From: Promethearchaeota archaeon
Lineage (GTDB): Archaea > Asgardarchaeota > Lokiarchaeia > Sigyniarchaeales > SOKP01
NCBI GenBank assembly: GCA_048939015.1
Contig: JBHLPW010000058.1
Coordinates: 1 to 29,110 of the forward strand
Direction of reading: 5' to 3'
Length of the DNA: 29,110 nucleotides
Under the pieces are notes generated by a model. The model made no database searches. It was not told the DNA's origin and saw only the letters and a list, made by a program, of their open reading frames with translations. Shown here one piece after another: positions 4,207 to 12,642 of the stretch (position 1 is the first letter of the stretch; every line of letters begins with the position of its first letter). Both the position numbers and the translations under genes were made by a program.

Positions 4207-5187
4207 TTGTTAAAAGAAGACGAAATTTATAAAGGAGATAAAAAAGGAATACAATTAATTTGTCCTATATGCCATAAAGAAAAAATTGTGGAAGTCCCTA
4301 TAAAAGTGGTGGAAGACTCTAAGACTCTTTTAACTATTTCAGTTCCTTCGAATTATATATGCCAACATGGCTTTCAAGCATATGTGGATAAATGGTTTGT
4401 GGTCAGAGGTTATCAGAGTTCTGACCTTGAATTAAAAAACCTTGAAATTTATGAAACAGGCAGTAAGAAGATTGATGATATTGTTACTTATACTGTATCT
4501 TTAGTTATTAAAAAAATAATTAATAATTTAAAGAAGAATGAGGAAGAGGGTGTAATTTTGGGCGGCTCACTCTTTAACCAAAAGGGATACGTTTTATATT
4601 TTTCTCTACCTGATGAAATATTTCTTAATATGATAAAACAATTTGAACTGCAAAAAGTAAACGGGGAACTCAAATTGAAAAAAATGATTATAGAATTAGA
4701 GAATAATCAAAAAATTTTTACCGAATTTCTAAAAGTGGAAGATTCAACTTTAACAATGGTTATCCTTTTTCCTTCTGTTATTAGTATCACTGATGCAGAA
4801 TCCTATATGAATGTTTTTAAAAAATTTGTCATGACTCATGATGATCCTAAAGAATTAAAAAAAAGGGAGCAATTACGAATGAAAAAAATAGAGGAAGCTC
4901 AAAAACGAAAAAGTACACGGAAAGCACCATCTAATTATTGGATCTATTCTAAAATAACTTGTGATAAACCTATAGAGGAGCTAGATAGTATTCCTATTGA
5001 TGAATTAGGGATTGATATCGACAAAAAAAACATTTTAAATCTAGAAGAAATCGTCCAAATTAGTAAAAGTCGAACATTTAAAGGAAAGATCTATTTCTCT
5101 GAGAAATTCATACAGCTAATGGAAGGTTTAGCATTAACTATGAAAGATGCTTCCACATTATTAAGTAAATTAAATAAAAAGCCATAA
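4207..5187 (+). CDS. Hypothetical protein: N-terminal Zn-binding domain plus roadblock/profilin-like domain
   Basis: CPIC...CQH at the N-terminus; central ILGGSLFNQKGYVLYFSLP strand-turn-strand pattern; charged coiled-coil linker; C-terminal domain unassigned. Confidence 0.55.
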   Translation: MLKEDEIYKGDKKGIQLICPICHKEKIVEVPIKVVEDSKTLLTISVPSNYICQHGFQAYVDKWFVVRGYQSSDLELKNLEIYETGSKKIDDIVTYTVSLVIKKIINNLKKNEEEGVILGGSLFNQKGYVLYFSLPDEIFLNMIKQFELQKVNGELKLKKMIIELENNQKIFTEFLKVEDSTLTMVILFPSVISITDAESYMNVFKKFVMTHDDPKELKKREQLRMKKIEEAQKRKSTRKAPSNYWIYSKITCDKPIEELDSIPIDELGIDIDKKNILNLEEIVQISKSRTFKGKIYFSEKFIQLMEGLALTMKDASTLLSKLNKKP

Positions 5188-5212
5188 TTGTAATTATATA
5201 TCAAACGATGGT

Positions 5213-6187
5213 TTAAATTCTTATCCAGAATGTAAAAAGAAAGAAATAAGATAGAAAATAAAGTGAAATAAATAGAATTCCAGCTTTCTTATCTATTTTT
5301 CTTCTTACTGCGATTGTAATAAATACAATAAAACTAACCATTAAAGTATATAAGACTGTAGGAACAGCAAGTGAGGATGTTATATAATTGGGATTTCGAT
5401 TAAATACAACATGTCCAATACCAATAGATAAGGTTGAGTCTACAATACAGGAACCTACAATGTCTCCTATAGCAATTTGATGGTGTCCCAACCGTAATGC
5501 ATTGATATCAACTGCCAATTCGGGGAGAGATGTACCCACAGCAACTATAAAAAAACTTATAATATATTCATGTATATTTAAGATACTTGAAAGAAATATA
5601 ACAGATTCAACAATCATATAGGCTGCTATTGTTACACCAATAAATCCTATTACTGCTATAAAGAGGTGATATTTTTTACTTTTAGGAGTTTCTATTTTCT
5701 CAATCATTTCTACTCTTTCTAGAATACTTTTCTTATTAGCATTATAAATTAACCAAATATAAATCCCTAAACACCCAACCATTAAAATGGCATCAAGTCG
5801 TGTAATATATCCTTTTTCAACTATAGTAAAGATTAAAATTAATGATAAAATTTCACAAGCTCCTAAAATAGTTGTATCTCTTCGATGAACGTAGAACATT
5901 CCAGAAATTAATGGCAAAAGTCCAAAAATCAAGGTAAGTTGAGTCAAATCTGAACCCACAGAATCACCAATATCAATATCTCCATGTCCTAATGAGACAG
6001 ATATAAGTGAATTAAAAATTTCAGAAATATCTGTTCCTATAGATACTAATGATACTCCAATTATTAAAGGAGAAATTCCTAGTGAAGCAGCAAGAATAGC
6101 AGAATGTTTTACAGCTTTCATACTGGAATAAATAATAAGAGATATTCCACCAATGAGAATAAATATTGCTAATAATATACTTATCAT
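5213..6187 (-). CDS. Cation/Ca2+ antiporter (CaCA, YrbG/NCX-like)
   Basis: About 10 TM with alpha-repeats GTDISE...GDSVGSD and GTSLPE...GDIVGSC. Confidence 0.92.
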   Translation of the reverse strand: MISILLAIFILIGGISLIIYSSMKAVKHSAILAASLGISPLIIGVSLVSIGTDISEIFNSLISVSLGHGDIDIGDSVGSDLTQLTLIFGLLPLISGMFYVHRRDTTILGACEILSLILIFTIVEKGYITRLDAILMVGCLGIYIWLIYNANKKSILERVEMIEKIETPKSKKYHLFIAVIGFIGVTIAAYMIVESVIFLSSILNIHEYIISFFIVAVGTSLPELAVDINALRLGHHQIAIGDIVGSCIVDSTLSIGIGHVVFNRNPNYITSSLAVPTVLYTLMVSFIVFITIAVRRKIDKKAGILFISLYFLSYFFLFTFWIRI

Positions 6188-6360
6188 TTTTTGATTAAAA
6201 ATTTTTATTATATATATTTATTGTCTTAAGTGTATACATTGGATTTATTGACTGAATGGAACTTCTCAATTATATATCAATGAAAGTTAAATTTTCACTT
6301 TAACAATGTTTTTGAGTAATTCTTTCTGCAGTTCTTATAGATATTTTCTCATATATAAAA

Positions 6361-6398
6361 TTATCCATTTTTTATCCGGAATGATCCATAGATTATCC
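6361..6398. repeat. Four helically phased T(T/G)ATCC boxes
   Basis: TTATCC 6361, TTATCC 6372, TGATCC 6382, TTATCC 6393; spacing 11/10/11 bp. Confidence 0.6.
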
Positions 6399-6420
6399 AA
6401 GACTTCGTAAACTTCTTATA

Positions 6421-6444
6421 TAAAACTAATTAAAACTAATTAAA
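6421..6444 (+). repeat. Short tandem repeat TAAAACTAAT x2.4
   Basis: TAAAACTAAT TAAAACTAAT TAAA runs into the RHH start codon. Confidence 0.7.
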
Positions 6445-6599
6445 TGGAAAATGAAAAACATGAATTCCATATTTCTATTGAAAAAGACGTATTTGAGAAA
6501 CTAGAAGCAATTAAAGATTATCATGGTATTAAGAACATAACCGAAATTATCCGATTTTTAATTACTAAAGAACATAGAGAAATAAAAAAAGCAGAGTAA
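6444..6599 (+). CDS. Small ribbon-helix-helix (CopG/MetJ/Arc-like) DNA-binding protein, 51 aa
   Basis: Not in ORF track. MENEKHEFHISIEKDVFEKLEAIKDYHGIKNITEIIRFLITKEHREIKKAE: alternating strand FHISI, helix A, G-turn, helix B with TEIIR. Confidence 0.8.
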   Translation: MENEKHEFHISIEKDVFEKLEAIKDYHGIKNITEIIRFLITKEHREIKKAE

Positions 6600-6629
6600 A
6601 TATCCAAAATAAATTCCGAGCTTAGATCC

Positions 6630-7385
6630 TTAAGATTTTATTATTTTAAGCAATTCAGTAAATATTTCACCGGCACTCCCTTTTAGAAATACATCTGCTA
6701 AATCATCCATAATGGTATTTTCTCGATTTATAAAGATAAGTCGAGCTCCATATTGCTTAGCAATAGAAGGCATATAATTAGCAGGTGTTACTAATAGAGA
6801 ACTGCCTACTACAATTAAACAATCTGCATTAGCGGATTCATGCATTGCACCCTCTAGAATACCATGGGGGAGAGATTCACCAAATAAAACTACTTTAGGT
6901 TTGATATATCCTGAACACTCACATACAGGATATTCAACACTTTTTGTATCTATTTCATTAATGTTAAATTCCTTTTGGCATTTAATACAATGTAATTTAC
7001 CATACTCTCCATGTAATTGGTAAATCTTTGCTCCACATTTACCACTTCCTGCTTTCTGATGCAACATATCTATATTCTGAGTAATAATAGCCTTAACCTT
7101 ACCCATCTTTTCTAATTCAGCAATAGCGCAATGTGCCTGATTAGGTTCTGCTGTGTCCATTAGATTATCAACTTCCTTTTGCATTTTCCAAAAAAAAGAA
7201 GGATCCTGTAAAAAATATTGATAACTTGCATAAATATTGGGGTCAAATCTATCCCACAATCCTCCCGGACTACGGAAGTCGTCAATTCCAGATTCTGTCG
7301 ATATACCTGCTCCAGTAAACACGACTATATAATTAGAATTTTTGATTATTAGAGCGGCATCAAATAGTTTTTCTTGTTCAATCAT
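6630..7385 (-). CDS. cobB: NAD-dependent protein deacylase, Sir2 family
   Basis: GAGISTESGIDDFR, TQNIDMLH, catalytic HG, Zn cysteines CIKC/CEC, KPKVVLFGE, GSSLLV. Confidence 0.95.
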   Translation of the reverse strand: MIEQEKLFDAALIIKNSNYIVVFTGAGISTESGIDDFRSPGGLWDRFDPNIYASYQYFLQDPSFFWKMQKEVDNLMDTAEPNQAHCAIAELEKMGKVKAIITQNIDMLHQKAGSGKCGAKIYQLHGEYGKLHCIKCQKEFNINEIDTKSVEYPVCECSGYIKPKVVLFGESLPHGILEGAMHESANADCLIVVGSSLLVTPANYMPSIAKQYGARLIFINRENTIMDDLADVFLKGSAGEIFTELLKIIKS

Positions 7386-7421: not shown

Positions 7422-8084
7422 TTAAAAATTATAAAATTTTCCCTTATCCTTTAGATAATATAACCCAAATCTTTCTGTTCGTCTCAATCTCATAGCTTCA
7501 GTTTGCCAACCCATATCTTTTGTATAAAATTGTGATTTGTGTAATTTTAAAGCTTCATACACTCGAAATCTTAAATCTCCAACCTTAATTTTAACAAGAT
7601 TTTCTCCTTGAGCCTTTAAAGGATTATATAGATAATAAATATAAAATTTTAATTCATTCAAATTAAGCTTTTCTGCCACTTTAACAGCAATATCATGAGT
7701 TGCTTGATGATCAGGATGTTTGTTATTATCACTTGGAATAACAAATACATCTGAATCTTTAACTATATTTATGATTTTTTCAACAGCGTCATCAATATGA
7801 TCTTTTAATTTTTGATCATAAAATTTGAGAAAATGTCTAAATTCTTTTTTTACTCCTAAAAATTCACCAGCAGCATCTGCCTCAGCTAACCTTATTTTTG
7901 CAAGTTCATCATCTGTAATTCTTGTTTCTTCACAATCTTCTAGTGTATTTTCTTCTCTCGCTTTTTTGTAACCCGCTCTACCATCAGTAAACCAAATTAT
8001 ATGAAGTTCATGACCTTCTTCAAGCCACTTTATAATTGATCCCCCTGCACCATAACTTTCATCATCAGGATGAGGGGCAAACAC
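7422..8084 (-). CDS. PIG-L/LmbE family deacetylase (start codon uncertain)
   Basis: APHPDDE, TDG, RLAE and HPDH motifs. Confidence 0.9.
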   Translation of the reverse strand: MFAPHPDDESYGAGGSIIKWLEEGHELHIIWFTDGRAGYKKAREENTLEDCEETRITDDELAKIRLAEADAAGEFLGVKKEFRHFLKFYDQKLKDHIDDAVEKIINIVKDSDVFVIPSDNNKHPDHQATHDIAVKVAEKLNLNELKFYIYYLYNPLKAQGENLVKIKVGDLRFRVYEALKLHKSQFYTKDMGWQTEAMRLRRTERFGLYYLKDKGKFYNF

Positions 8085-8402
8085 TATTATCTTAAAGATA
8101 TATCACCAATTGAATTGGTTATTCCTATATCAAAATAATTACGTATAGCATTAAAAATAGTTGATTATATTTTTAATAGATTAAGATTATTATACTTTTT
8201 AATCTTTATTCATGAAAACTTTATCATATTGCGATCAAAAAGTGTAATTTGTTGTAATAGTAAATATTTAAATAAAAATTTTATTATCAAATATGTATAA
8301 CTTTTGTATAGGAATATAAGATTTATTATAATTATCCATACAAAATATATAAGTTACTACAAAAAATGATAATTTTTTATAAAGAATAAAAGGTGTAAAT
8401 AC

Positions 8403-10127
8403 ATGAACATTGGAAGAAGAATGGTCTTTGGATTTTCTGTTCTGATTTTATTGTGTAGTGTAATAGGAATTGTTGGAATCTTTCAAATAAATGCTGTCAA
8501 TGCAAATATTCAAACAATAACAAATAAATATCTTATAACCGTTGAAGATTCAAGAGAGATTAAATATCATGGAGATGCAATGTCCCATTTGATGCATGAA
8601 TATGAATTAGGAGAAATAAATGGTACAGAAGTTGCATTTGATGATGAATCTGAAGAATTAGATGAGCACTTAACAGAATTAGAAGTTAAACTTCCTGAAT
8701 ATGAACATGAATTAGAACATATTAGAGAACACTATATGATAATGGCAAATACATGCAAAGCCCAAAATACAGGTATGTTTGATTTATTTGATGAAGCTTT
8801 TGAAGATATACATTATATCCATGAAATTGTTGAATCTTGGGAAGCAAGCCTCTTTTACATAAGAAATAATGCTCAATCTAATTTGACTATAGAAACCGCT
8901 AATTATATGCTATATCTGAGAGATGTTGAAGAACATGCGATGCATGAATATATTTTAAATAGAGAAATAGGTGCTAGCGTTGATGCAATAACAGATTCTG
9001 AAACAGAATTCAGTAGTTTAATACCAACATTAAAAACAGATTTAAATGCTTCAATGGTAGCAGAAATTGACACTCTTTTATATTGGCATGAAAGAACTGA
9101 TGGTGAAGGCGCTGTTGACAGAATTTTAGAATTAATATCTCATTACGATGATTCTTGGGAAGCCAGCGAGGTTCTTGAAGAAAATTATGATGAAATGAAA
9201 GAACATTTGGAAGAATTGGTCGTTTTACTTAATGGGGCAGTTGATGGGGCAGTCAATAATGCCAATTTTACCGTTTTTACAGCAATATTGGTTAGTATTA
9301 TAAGTCTCTCGACGGCAGTAGTACTAGGTATAGCAATCGCAATCCCGACAACTAGAGGGATCGTAAAGGTTACTAATAATATGGAGAGAGTATTAGCAGC
9401 AGGATCTAATGCAAGCGTTAATGTAGCAAATATGGCGACAGAATTGGCTGCAAGTGCTAGTGAAGTAAATGCCGCATCTGAAGAAATTGCATCTACAACT
9501 CAGGAAGTTTCAATGAATACGCAAGGTCAAGTAAATTCACTTGTAGAAATCAGTAAAATGTCGAGTAACATCAATGATCTTGCCCATGAAATCATGAAAT
9601 CAACTAACGATATAAATAGGATAATGGATCTGATAACCAGTATTTCAGATCAAACGAATTTATTAGCATTGAACGCAAGCATTGAAGCCGGTAGAGCTGG
9701 CGAGTACGGCCGAGGTTTCGCTGTAGTAGCTGACGAGGTTCGAAAGCTAGCTGAAGAATCTAAAAATGCAACTGATGACACTGCTACTCAAGTATCAGAT
9801 ATAACCAACCGTATAAGGTCTACTGTTGAATTAATAGGATCTATTACTCAGGATATTGAAAGTGCAACTGCAGCTGGAGAAGAAAATTCACGTGCACTTG
9901 AAGGAATTAGTGCCTCTTCAGAACAACAAACGGCTTCAATGGAAGAAATAACAGCAACAGCTAATAGACTTGGTACTTTAGCAGAAGATCTAAAGAATCA
10001 ATTAAAAGAACATGGAGATAATGGCAAAGTAAAAACTCAAAAACAGAAAATCGAAACAAGAAAAAGAATTTTAAAAGTACCTACCACTATAAAAAAATCA
10101 AAACAAATTCATAGCTATAAAGAATAA
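8403..10127 (+). CDS. Methyl-accepting chemotaxis-like receptor with large helical extracellular domain
   Basis: Two TM segments; hairpin tip [35 protein letters not shown]; methylation-type motifs [15 protein letters not shown]. Confidence 0.93.
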
Positions 10128-10158: not shown

Positions 10159-10247
10159 ATTATTAAATTTAATTGTCATGATAAAAATAAAAGTTAATAA
10201 TTACGCTCATCAAATGAGAACGCAAATCCTATAAATCCCTTTCTAAA

Positions 10248-10280
10248 AATAGGGGTTTGTCTTAGTGATAAACCCCTATT
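10248..10280. repeat. 14-bp inverted repeat / stem-loop
   Basis: AATAGGGGTTTGTC-TTAGT-GATAAACCCCTATT; 13 Watson-Crick pairs plus one G-U on the + strand. Confidence 0.8.
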
Positions 10281-10472
10281 ATATTATAAAATATAAAATT
10301 TTGAACTATAGTATATTTTTAAAATAAATATAAATAAAGGTGTAATAATTTTGTTAATTAGAATTTCAAGAATTTATTATAATTTTTAAATTTCTATTCC
10401 AATATTTTATAATAACTAGTATAAAAAGTAATAAATGGGGAATTATAACTATTTAAAGGAGTATTCCATAAA

Positions 10473-11201
10473 ATGACCAAAAAAAATAATTCAAAAGAAA
10501 AAGAAAGAATTACAATATTAGTATCTGATGCTACAAAGAATAGATGGCAAGATTTTAGTAAAACAAAAAAATACTCTACATTATCAAAATTAATAAGAGA
10601 ATCTGTAGAATTCTTTATTGACTTTAGTTCAAAACCAAATCCCATAACCACTATTTCAAAATTATCACACGATTTAAAAGAACCTTTAACTGCCATTAAA
10701 GGCTTTTCACACTTATTAATTGAAAATTATAAAGATAGACTTGATTGGGGAACTTTAACAAAGATTAAACAAGTCTATGATCAGAGTATAATTCTTGAAG
10801 ACATTATTAAAGGTGTTTTAGATGATTATCAATATGATAAAGTTCAGTATGATATATTGATTGTTGACGATGATAGTTCCACTAATAATGTATTGCTTGA
10901 TTTTTTTCAATTAAAAGGATACTCTTGTAAAGATTTTACTTTAGGATTGGAAATTTTTAAAGAATTAGAAATAATTAAACCAAAAATAATTCTTTTAGAT
11001 ATTCTACTCCCAGATTTAAATGGATATGAAATCTGTAAAAAAATAAAATCAGATGAAATATTTAATGATATTCTTGTTTTTTATATATCTGCTGTTCCGG
11101 AAAGTGAAATTATGCAGCATATGGAAGAAACTATGGCAGATGGGTATTTCTTGAAACCTTTTAATTTCCTTGAATTCGAAAAATTATTTAATTTTTTATA
11201 A
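10473..11201 (+). CDS. RHH-HisKA(DHp)-REC fusion response regulator lacking an HATPase domain
   Basis: RHH pattern RITILVSD...STLSKLIRESVE; H-box SHDLKEPLTAIKGF (H66); receiver IVDDD, LLD176ILLP, S206, K228PF. Confidence 0.85.
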   Translation: MTKKNNSKEKERITILVSDATKNRWQDFSKTKKYSTLSKLIRESVEFFIDFSSKPNPITTISKLSHDLKEPLTAIKGFSHLLIENYKDRLDWGTLTKIKQVYDQSIILEDIIKGVLDDYQYDKVQYDILIVDDDSSTNNVLLDFFQLKGYSCKDFTLGLEIFKELEIIKPKIILLDILLPDLNGYEICKKIKSDEIFNDILVFYISAVPESEIMQHMEETMADGYFLKPFNFLEFEKLFNFL

Positions 11202-12642
11202 ATTGAGCTTTATATAATCTCAAAGTAAAAGTAGATCCGCAGTTTCTACCAGATGATTCAACAAATAAGTGACCTTCATGTAATTCTACAATTTCTTTAG
11301 ATAAATAGAGTCCAATACCAGTACCATCAATATCAACATTTAAATTTTTACCATACCTTTCTATTTTTCCAAATGGTGTAAATAACATTTCAATCTCTTC
11401 TTGAGTTAACCCTATACCATTATCTTTAATTCTTAAATCTACATGATTATTATTTTCAATTGTACTTATTTGAATTTCTCCCTCAGGTGGAGTATTTTTT
11501 ATAGCGTTTGAAAGAATATTTATTATAACTTGTTCTATTCTAAGGCGATCAATATTCAGAAATAAAGAGTCAGATAATTCTGATTTTAATGTTAAATTAC
11601 GTTTTATAGCCAAAATAATAATCTCATCAATACAATTTTGGATTACTTCAGAAAGGTTTGTTTTCTTCTTTTTTATTATTAACTTTCCAGATTCTAACAT
11701 AGAAATATCTAAAATATTTTCAACTAAAGCATTTAGTCTCAACCCTCCTTTATGAATCGTATCAATAAATCGAATTATATGAAAATTGATATCATTTTTA
11801 TAATTAGTTAAAAGGTGTTGAGTGGCACTTTGTATTGAATTTAAAGGTGTTTTTAATTCATGTGAAACTCGTGTAATTAAGTTTTTTCTAAATTGATCAA
11901 GTTCCTGTAATTTTTTGTTTTCTTCTATTATCATTTTTTCTGCTTTAACTTTTTCAGTGATATTTTTACAATAATTTATAATTCCTATCATTTCTGTGGT
12001 ATCTTGATCAAATAAAGGAAAAGAGAAAATTTCTACCCAGTCAATTTCATTATTATTCTCATTATTTACAGCATGAATTTTACTTTTTATTAATTTATTT
12101 TTAATTAGACTTAAATTAGGACAGTCTTCACAGCCTTTATTCCTATTTTCATAAATTTCATAACATTTTTTCCCTATTATTTGATTTTTATGAGAATACC
12201 ATTTTTCAATTGTAGGATTTATATGTAAAATATTAAGATCTTTATCAAGAACTACTATTCCATCTTGAATACCGGAAAATAAATCATAAGCTCCAGATAT
12301 TAATCGTAAATATGCTTGTTCAGATTCTTTAATTACGCGATCAAGGATTACTTGTTTTTTAATAATAAAATTTCCAAAAATATAAATAATGACAAAAAAA
12401 GTTAAAATAATCAGATATGTCCAAAACTCATGAAAATTTAAAGTAAAAATTGATTTATGTAAATCTCCCCCATGATGAATAAAGAGATCGATGAATGTAT
12501 AAATTATTAGAATTATTAAAATGGAGAGGATTAATACTAATTTTAATTTTTTTAGCAGACATTTGGTTTCTTCTTTTAAATTTACAGCAAGAAAAGACTT
12601 ATATTCCCTGATTTGATCAGAGTTATTTTCTTTGTTATTCAT
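11188..12642 (-). CDS. Membrane PAS-domain sensor histidine kinase
   Basis: Two TM; PAS (DGIVVLD...NP...GKKCYE); H-box SHELKTPL; N-box NILSNAIK; G1 DNGIG; F-box LFTPF; G2 GTGIGL. Confidence 0.95.
   Translation of the reverse strand: MNNKENNSDQIREYKSFLAVNLKEETKCLLKKLKLVLILSILIILIIYTFIDLFIHHGGDLHKSIFTLNFHEFWTYLIILTFFVIIYIFGNFIIKKQVILDRVIKESEQAYLRLISGAYDLFSGIQDGIVVLDKDLNILHINPTIEKWYSHKNQIIGKKCYEIYENRNKGCEDCPNLSLIKNKLIKSKIHAVNNENNNEIDWVEIFSFPLFDQDTTEMIGIINYCKNITEKVKAEKMIIEENKKLQELDQFRKNLITRVSHELKTPLNSIQSATQHLLTNYKNDINFHIIRFIDTIHKGGLRLNALVENILDISMLESGKLIIKKKKTNLSEVIQNCIDEIIILAIKRNLTLKSELSDSLFLNIDRLRIEQVIINILSNAIKNTPPEGEIQISTIENNNHVDLRIKDNGIGLTQEEIEMLFTPFGKIERYGKNLNVDIDGTGIGLYLSKEIVELHEGHLFVESSGRNCGSTFTLRLYKAQFIKN

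Follow-up and report, generated by a model that had tools for sequence, protein, structure and literature searches.

Archaea largely lack the DNA-binding response regulators of bacteria, so that it is an open question by what route two-component signals act on transcription in these organisms (Galperin et al., 2018; PMC5847659). The rare transcriptional response regulators known from archaea place an N-terminal DNA-binding domain before a C-terminal receiver (REC) domain, as in LtrR, where a helix-turn-helix (HTH) is joined to REC, and in FilR1, which has the order winged HTH-DUF1724-REC (PMC5847659). The same survey recorded, in one sentence, an Arc-type ribbon-helix-helix (RHH) domain followed by HisKA and REC in four proteins of Lokiarchaeum sp. 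GC14_75, with neither analysis nor function (Galperin et al., 2018, J Bacteriol, PMC5847659), and a 2023 paper on Asgard kinases listed one such protein (HisKA; REC; 34 kDa) among the sensor kinases, uncommented. Beyond PMC5847659, a literature search pairing both domain terms returned one paper, which was unrelated. This study concerns a gene of this kind in a 29,110-nucleotide stretch of DNA from a Promethearchaeota archaeon (contig JBHLPW010000058.1 of assembly GCA_048939015.1, positions 1 to 29,110; hereafter the window). Its product, referred to as the regulator, belongs to the group catalogued in 2018: it has the same domains in the same order and comes from the same archaeal group, its homologues being named Lokiarchaeota or Promethearchaeota. 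Hence, the architecture is known but uncharacterized. New with respect to the one-line catalogue entry are the narrow distribution of the family, its expansion in this genome, a relaxed histidine within a drifted H-box, an invariant partner face, a co-duplicated module of chemoreceptor, regulator, and kinase, and a candidate cis element.

Several better-described proteins share parts of this design. Spo0B and ChpT carry a histidine on a four-helix bundle of the dimerization and histidine phosphotransfer (DHp) type, have no kinase activity, and dock REC domains. They retain a degenerate ATPase-like domain, depend on their histidine, and include neither a REC nor a DNA-binding domain. In contrast, the DHp of the regulator leads straight into a REC, with no pseudo-ATPase domain after it, and its histidine was repeatedly lost in the family, being dispensable in 21 of 281 members. 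In DivL of Caulobacter, a tyrosine replaces the histidine, and the protein senses DivK~P and signals backwards, while it keeps its PAS and ATPase domains, has a separate REC partner, and lacks a DNA-binding domain. Its likeness to the regulator is a lead only: the DHp could act as a sensor of REC~P that signals toward the N-terminus, and tyrosine is the commonest replacement of the histidine in the family. NikR resembles the regulator in that an oligomeric sensor domain at its C-terminus controls how the N-terminal RHH binds DNA. In NikR this is a nickel-binding tetramerization domain, whereas in the regulator it would be a DHp bundle with a phospho-receiver. LtrR and FilR1 use helix-turn-helix domains and have no DHp stalk, in contrast to the RHH and DHp stalk of the regulator. 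Archaeal proteins with HisKA but no HATPase, as well as REC-(PAS)n-HisKA proteins, have been suggested to be phosphoacceptors or phosphatases (Galperin et al., 2018; PMC5847659), but these belong to Archaeoglobi and Methanomicrobia, carry sensor domains, have their HisKA at the C-terminal end, and have no RHH.

The regulator is a lineage-specific archaeal response regulator. The reading modestly favored here as the most likely one is that of an RHH transcription factor switched by aspartate phosphorylation, in which the DHp serves mainly as a dimerizing and coupling stalk. The family would then be a plausible answer, for one Asgard lineage, to how two-component signals reach transcription, and, as a compact natural experiment, it allows one to ask what the DHp stalk of a kinase can do once the ATPase is gone.

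Domain architecture

The regulator is composed of an RHH, a DHp helical hairpin, and a REC, in this order and with no ATPase (Table 1). Its full-length AlphaFold2 model had a predicted local distance difference test (pLDDT) score of 89.2 and a predicted template modeling (pTM) score of 0.57. Pfam HisKA was matched at residues 61-117 with 28.2 bits against a cut-off of 26.9, rising to 31.7 bits when the region was scanned alone, and Response_reg was matched at residues 128-235 with 57.3 bits against a cut-off of 30.2. No Pfam match to HATPase_c was found in the protein, and neither Pfam nor the model revealed any alpha/beta domain after the DHp other than the REC. The second DHp helix and the first REC strand lie only about 10 residues apart, a gap too short to hide a catalytic domain.

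The H-box reads S-H-D-L-K-E-P-L-T, where D67 and E70 follow H66 at positions H+1 and H+4. The REC possesses a complete active-site set (D132/D133/D134, D176, S206, Y225, and K228) and a CheY-like fold, with RpaA, CheY, Spo0F, and RR468 as the best Foldseek matches at a root-mean-square deviation (rmsd) of 1.5-2 A. The initial annotation had described a three-domain protein without a catalytic domain, in which a DHp with an H-box at H66 precedes a receiver with all key residues; the Pfam matches and models bear out each of these points.

The N-terminal domain

Searches with the full-length profile against the PDB, as well as Foldseek searches with the full model, returned REC matches only, and the N-terminus was therefore modeled separately. 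The model of residues 1-58 alone reached a pLDDT of 87.5 and contained an extended segment at 11-17 followed by helices at 19-31 and 37-53; these elements had a pLDDT of 92-97 in the AlphaFold2 models. The top Foldseek rows were RHH proteins (NikR, CopA, PutA, PrpA, and CopG bound to DNA), and the NikR match had a TMq of 0.70 and an rmsd of 1.0 A over 44 residues. In VIA, an exhaustive all-against-all structure search of 48,161 representative chains, the top 50 rows were nearly all RHH proteins (including PutA, NikR, Arc, omega, ParG, and AmrZ) at Z values from 6.4 to 4.2. The best of these were the PutA RHH (Z 6.4, rmsd 0.8 A over 44 residues) and NikR (Z 6.3, rmsd 1.1 A over 46 residues). 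The small size of the domain explains the modest Z values, and the assignment rests on how uniform the list of structural matches is. At the level of predicted structure, the RHH fold recognized in the initial annotation was thereby confirmed.

The sequence matches were weak. A profile of residues 1-58 from 26 members, compared to all PDB sequences, had a CopG-family protein (7by2), ORF56 of pRN1, and a CopG/Arc/MetJ antitoxin as its top three matches, and Pfam gave sub-threshold matches to RHH_8 and RHH_1 for another protein of the genome, 151 aa long, which has the common RHH module (L024, 2993-3445, + strand). Few parts of the family are as well conserved as the RHH, in which W25, S38, and R42 are each conserved in 99% of the 281 members. 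In keeping with the alternation of outward polar and basic residues on RHH strands, an arginine at strand position 12, typical of DNA-reading RHH domains, was kept in 252 of 281 (89%), and so were the N-cap residues of the second helix, T36 (at least 90%) and S38 (279 of 281), where Ser or Thr occupies the phosphate-contact position. Strand positions 14 and 16 differ between paralogues, with Ser, Thr, Gly, Met, or Asn at position 14, which is the pattern expected if the paralogues read differing operators.

Conservation of the receiver and the DHp histidine

Residue statistics were calculated from 281 non-identical full-length members. The receiver was nearly invariant: K228 was Lys in all 281 (100%), D176 was Asp in 99.6%, D133 was Asp in 279, position 206 was Thr or Ser in 280, and position 225 was Tyr or Phe in 261 (93%). 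At H66, His was found in 92.5% of the members, and the 21 members without it carried Tyr (seven), Arg (four), Leu (three), or other residues. Both K69 (Lys in 279 of 281) and L72 (Leu in 280 of 281) were more conserved than the adjacent H66. A FastTree phylogeny built without the His column revealed at least 16 independent changes of the His state.

The surroundings of H66 have also drifted in a family-specific manner. As a baseline, all 27 HATPase kinases of the genome with a detectable DHp had the His, Glu or Asp at H+1, and Thr or Ser at H+4, within an H-box of the form S/A-H-[ED]-[LF]-[KR]-[TS], i.e., H-[ED]-x-x-[TS]. In the family, H+1 was acidic in only 117 of 281 members (42%) and Ala in 84, and H+4 was Glu in 249 (89%). 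The HisKA phosphatase motif known from mutational studies consists of an acid at H+1 and Thr or Asn at H+4. The regulator has the former in D67, while the latter is replaced by E70, and the phosphatase role for the DHp that the initial annotation had entertained is thus disfavored. Since H66 was lost across the family and its neighbors have diverged, histidine chemistry is not the universal core of the family. H66 is not neutral either, since it was kept in 128 of 129 of the closest genomic relatives. The expectation that H66 would be conserved therefore stood in part: the residue is kept in most members, but it changed independently many times against the near-complete retention of D176 and K228, and the catalytic neighbors did not persist.

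In orthodox kinases, as studied in EnvZ and HK853, positions on the first DHp helix set partner specificity, and paralogous kinases usually diverge there to remain insulated. In the family, these positions were nearly fixed, with Thr at H+7 in 95%, Lys at H+10 in 93%, Gly at H+11 in 97%, and Phe or Tyr at H+12. This held across ten paralogues of one genome, whereas the kinases of the same genome vary freely at these positions. The invariant face suggests a common, probably internal, partner, the simplest candidate being the tethered REC. The REC itself kept T/S206 and Y/F225, reads T-A-[IV]-P, and has no FATGUY. Terminal allosteric RECs retain the T/S-Y/F pair, while relay intermediates of the CckA type have a variable aromatic and FATGUY (Bruderlin et al., 2023; PMC9981736), a comparison that favors a REC of the output-controlling kind.

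A proposed mechanism and its alternatives

In the favored mechanism, the DHp hairpin would form a constitutive four-helix-bundle dimer that holds two RHH chains together as the obligate two-stranded ribbon reading the DNA major groove. The neighboring convergent PAS kinase would phosphorylate D176, upon which the T/S206-Y225 switch would alter the packing of the REC against the DHp and/or a second dimer. The altered packing would change the RHH geometry or yield a dimer of dimers, and with it the occupancy of the operator. Likely targets would be local, namely the promoter region of the regulator itself and the adjacent chemoreceptor gene, with the GCAAATCC/AAATCCC/hairpin element described below as the candidate site. 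H66 would represent an inherited kinase feature that is not needed for the core function. It may add a side reaction, either Asp-to-His back-transfer (buffering) or a contact with the phosphorylated REC; histidine phosphotransfer is possible, but not universal. A dimeric DNA-binding regulator controlled by phosphorylation, as put forward in the initial annotation, remains the best reading. The stacking of the RHH dimer on the DHp bundle that accompanied it is, as a rigid arrangement, unproven: confidence in the model is lowest at the joint between the two (block pLDDT 67, with a break at 54-56), and the joint has a bimodal length of 16 or 22/23 residues, which, on few independent events, is compatible with a helical connector.

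Several observations weigh against this mechanism. DNA binding, dimerization, and kinase pairing of the family are all inferred, and the arrangement of the domains in the AlphaFold2 monomer is uncertain, as its pTM indicates. No Pfam RHH family was matched at E<=10 by residues 1-60 or 1-120, and the three PDB sequence matches of the N-terminus, while in register, were individually weak (E 0.058 for 7by2, with a range of 0.06-0.9). The 281 members are related sequences dominated by one orthologous tandem pair, so that the percentages describe the sample rather than independent events. H66 likely has some function, given its retention overall and among the close relatives. The regulator and the kinase are convergent and not co-transcribed. 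Finally, the spacing between the core arms of the upstream hairpin varies (5-7 nt), which suits an RNA hairpin no less than a double-stranded operator, and the compensatory changes fit an RNA hairpin, too.

The alternatives differ mainly in what they ask of the DHp. In a built-in phosphorelay, H66 would function as a phospho-histidine. It would gain its phosphate in trans from the ATPase of the neighboring kinase and pass it to D176, or else take it from D176~P for another receiver, in the manner of a fused Spo0F+Spo0B-like step, and DNA binding would report the state of the relay. H66 lies in a good H-box at an exposed position of the first DHp helix and is kept in 260 of 281 members and in nearly all of the closest relatives; histidine phosphotransfer (HPt) domains are rare in archaea, where ATPase-less HisKA proteins have been proposed as phosphoacceptors (PMC5847659); and the many stand-alone REC proteins and the Che system of the genome are possible acceptors. 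However, the REC site was retained in every one of the independent His changes, the acid at H+1 is a minority feature and H+4 carries Glu for Thr, the T-Y allosteric pair that the REC keeps is usual for terminal regulators, not for relay intermediates, and the partner positions are invariant in 10 paralogues of one cell, which would leave the relays without insulation. A phosphorelay is thus doubtful, although it deserves more weight than the other alternatives. Somewhat less probable, and speculative, is a DHp repurposed as an internal reader: REC~P would dock on the invariant helix-1 face by H66 (or Tyr) and signal back to the RHH, the self-contained three-gene unit with the co-duplicated chemoreceptor and kinase would tune the expression of every chemoreceptor to the signal of that receptor, and the kept His might swap phosphate with Che-type receivers. 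If true, this would amount to a kinase signaling module run in reverse for the control of transcription.

It is unlikely that the regulator acts instead as a partner or decoy of the kinase, its DHp pairing with that of its neighbor in a mixed four-helix bundle, as a subunit or inhibitor, and possibly tethering the kinase to DNA or to the chemoreceptor. The two proteins are complementary, in that the kinase has no REC and the regulator no ATPase, their genes are tightly linked and co-duplicated, and the H-box of the family resembles that of the genome's own kinases. On the other hand, the most conserved members, a tandem pair located by a gene for the transcription factor TFB, have no adjacent kinase, and an RHH needs two copies of its own chain, which favors homodimers. 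The DHps of the neighboring kinases also scored only 22.7-35.9 bits against the family profile, compared to 54-56 for the unlinked C120 kinases, which is weak evidence and no refutation. Still less credible is a DHp that works as a dedicated phosphatase or phosphate sink draining the receiver, with an RHH whose DNA binding is not regulated. ATPase-less HisKA domains have been suggested to be phosphatases (PMC5847659), but the motif is lost in the family, with Glu at H+4 in the great majority and an acid at H+1 in fewer than half of the members, and the RHH is well conserved, with strand residues varying as for differing DNA specificities. The analysis leads to testable items: a candidate kinase, a candidate 60-bp element, the residues D176, H66, E70, and Y225, and the natural His-less members.

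Genuineness of the gene

A word-index search returned 387 homologues of 175-292 aa, and a HMMER search over 1.84 billion representatives returned 48 proteins at E<=1e-30, where full-length matches had 240-320 aa. The initial annotation had allowed for homologues that usually retain an HATPase. No HATPase-bearing form was found among the 281 full-length members, nor among the longer relatives scanned by Pfam. One of these longer relatives (P0139, 533 aa) contains HisKA and REC with no HATPase; the remaining longer matches that were scanned were REC proteins without a HisKA match, including some fusions of a small GTPase to a REC. Arf/Ras-like GTPase-REC fusions were found among the nearest REC relatives, and an Arf/RagA-like GTPase gene lies immediately upstream of one paralogue (C116); these small GTPases are represented by P0175, P0186, and L016 152-1642.

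That the gene is an artefact, whether a hybrid kinase that was truncated, an error of assembly, or a pseudogene, has a negligible probability and was refuted. It could draw only on the fact that some orthologues are annotated as short proteins of 175-179 aa. The same architecture was found in all 281 full-length members, from many sources. Metagenome contigs from three runs of two studies cover positions 10283-11112 and 10818-11719 without indels. Both junctions between the domains, as well as the stretch shared with the kinase gene, are spanned by these independent contigs, which shows that the junction between DHp and REC did not arise in assembly. The short annotations result from gene calling, since L027 and L036 have the full frame open. 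In these two loci (L027 6980-7729 and L036 6980-7720), the RHH-DHp-REC frame is open, but no ATG, GTG, or TTG precedes the RHH, and gene callers begin at an internal Met to yield proteins of 175-192 aa without the RHH and the His (cf. P0046, P0065, and P0073). There, the start may be non-canonical, or the gene may have been mis-called.

Distribution and copy number

A scan of one genome per species revealed at least 458 encoding loci, and the locus names and the contexts counted elsewhere rest on the best 80 of these. The 80 loci carried Promethearchaeota or Lokiarchaeial names, with a few labeled as Thor-, Hod-, Hermod-, or Sigynarchaeota. Two were found on contigs of 'bacterial' metagenome-assembled genomes, labeled Nanopelagicaceae and Anoxychlamydiales (L058, DATKTW010000106.1; L076, JAAKFN010000099.1). 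Both are typical family loci, one of them with a chemoreceptor and kinases, and the contigs are probably mis-binned Asgard sequences.

The phylum was surveyed through an even sample of 151 genomes with a full-length profile and an RHH-only profile. With both profiles, the family was matched in 23 of the 25 genomes of the window's own GTDB family, while RHH-DHp-REC proteins were found in none of the 126 genomes from the 26 other families. The family is thus not Asgard-wide, having been found in a single GTDB family of the phylum among the sampled genomes.

Most genomes encode two to five copies, whereas that of the window encodes 10 strong and two divergent ones. In the divergent paralogues (L021 5239-6066 and L022 4984-5829; G000:C46), the Asp and the RHH-helical-REC layout persist, the H-box His is gone, and about 20 residues are inserted between the RHH and the stalk.

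The regulator differs from most members in being a short form without an N-terminal extension of about 40 residues, which reads Y-E-x-E-T-G-K-x-A-I-W-R-G..T-E-G-F-K-K-W-x-K-G-E-K-I-Y (for example in L013, C22 13660-14508) and is also absent from its close orthologues. The same extension and the start of the RHH module were found at the head of a 392-aa ABC-type ATPase (L023 2720-3895, - strand).

Upstream conserved element

An intergenic element lies between the chemoreceptor gene and the regulator, 190-250 nt upstream of the start codon of the latter. It is composed of two short boxes followed by a hairpin or palindrome (Table 1). Both boxes were kept in L026, whose protein shares 87% identity with the regulator, while in L027 (70%) the GCAAATCC box was kept and the second box had diverged. 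The hairpin was retained in both with compensatory changes, and its folding energy lay between -19 and -24 kcal/mol (z -4.3 to -5.7). The boxes recur in the paralogous C22 module, where they are accompanied by a GGGGG..CCCCC hairpin. The combination of GCAAATCC and hairpin was absent upstream of the other paralogues, and a comparison of the element to Rfam gave far-sub-threshold chance rows only.

The hairpin follows the pattern GGGGnnnRTC-loop-GAYnnnCCCC, which was also found in L013 (6811-6843), L026 (about 6777-6812), and L027 (about 6742-6785). In the 4.86-Mb genome, the pattern occurred at three places, two of them in these modules, while a control pattern occurred at none, and a generic terminator was rejected on the basis of this rarity. 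Two features are in line with an operator, namely the specificity to the modules and the location a short way downstream of a TATA-like box. The element is thus regarded as a candidate operator or a candidate leader RNA or terminator structure.

Gene neighborhood

The regulator gene is flanked by a methyl-accepting chemotaxis protein (MCP) gene and a histidine kinase gene (Table 1). The kinase is the probable cognate kinase of the regulator, as suggested by the conserved tight linkage between regulator and PAS histidine kinase: a convergent kinase gene was found right after the regulator stop in five of the 10 paralogues of this genome and in about 17 of the 80 best loci elsewhere, and in two further paralogues a kinase lies one or two genes off. 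The adjoining kinases fall within one kinase subfamily.

The MCP is a candidate target or partner. An MCP gene was found within 500 bp of six of the 10 paralogues, in a genome that encodes 21 MCPs, as well as at the orthologous loci L026 and L027 and in L036 and L076. Three of the six MCPs are full-length membrane proteins, and three are short (276-375 aa). CheA, CheW, CheR, and a CheY-like gene are encoded on other contigs of the genome, so that a conventional Che pathway is available to the MCPs for signaling. The MCP and Che genes noted here involve contigs C51, C22, C99, C101, and C112. The simplest role of the regulator would be the control of the expression of the neighboring MCP gene.

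For each of the three genes, the closest counterpart of the module in the window is found in the module on C22, and vice versa, with identities of 53% for the regulator, 52% over 596 aa for the MCP, and 53% for the kinase core. This indicates that the MCP-regulator-kinase triad was duplicated as a unit, and the adjacency counts are therefore not independent.

Table 1. Positions of the regulator gene, its domains and key codons, and the neighboring features in the window.
Feature	Position	Strand	Remarks
RHH-DHp-REC response regulator gene	10473..11201	+	242 aa, ATG start, end includes stop; open reading frame list, Pfam, AlphaFold2
RHH DNA-binding domain (predicted)	10500..10631	+	residues ~10-53: strand 11-17, helix 19-31, helix 37-53; AlphaFold2, Foldseek, VIA, profile matches
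DHp (HisKA-type) hairpin	10641..10832	+	residues 57-120; Pfam HisKA, AlphaFold2 helices 57-86 and 92-120
H66 codon (H-box histidine)	10668..10670	+	His in 260/281 members
REC domain	10854..11192	+	residues 128-240; Pfam, Foldseek, conserved active site
D176 codon (phospho-acceptor aspartate)	10998..11000	+	Asp in 280/281; aligns with the phospho-Asp of DivK
Conserved intergenic element	10222..10280	+	GCAAATCC box at 10222, AAATCCC box at 10233, hairpin/palindrome with 14-nt arms at 10248-10280
MCP (4HB_MCP + MCPsignal)	8403..10127	+	574 aa, directly upstream; Pfam; candidate target or partner
Membrane PAS-HisKA-HATPase histidine kinase	11188..12642	-	484 aa, convergent, 3' end overlaps that of the regulator by 14 bp; Pfam; probable cognate kinase

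Elsewhere, the commonest context was a tandem pair of family members, and a divergent TFIIB/TFB gene was found upstream in 40 of 51 such loci. In the window's genome, one such locus is L014 (G000:C43), with genes at 4811-5704 (-), 6246-7118 (+), and 7424-8389 (+); further examples were found among L034-L104. A conserved open reading frame of 162 aa lies downstream in 36 of the 51 tandem loci. Additionally, L014 contains a LAGLIDADG homing-endonuclease-like open reading frame after the tandem pair (8395-9249, - strand), a homologue of which was found in four of the 51 tandem loci.

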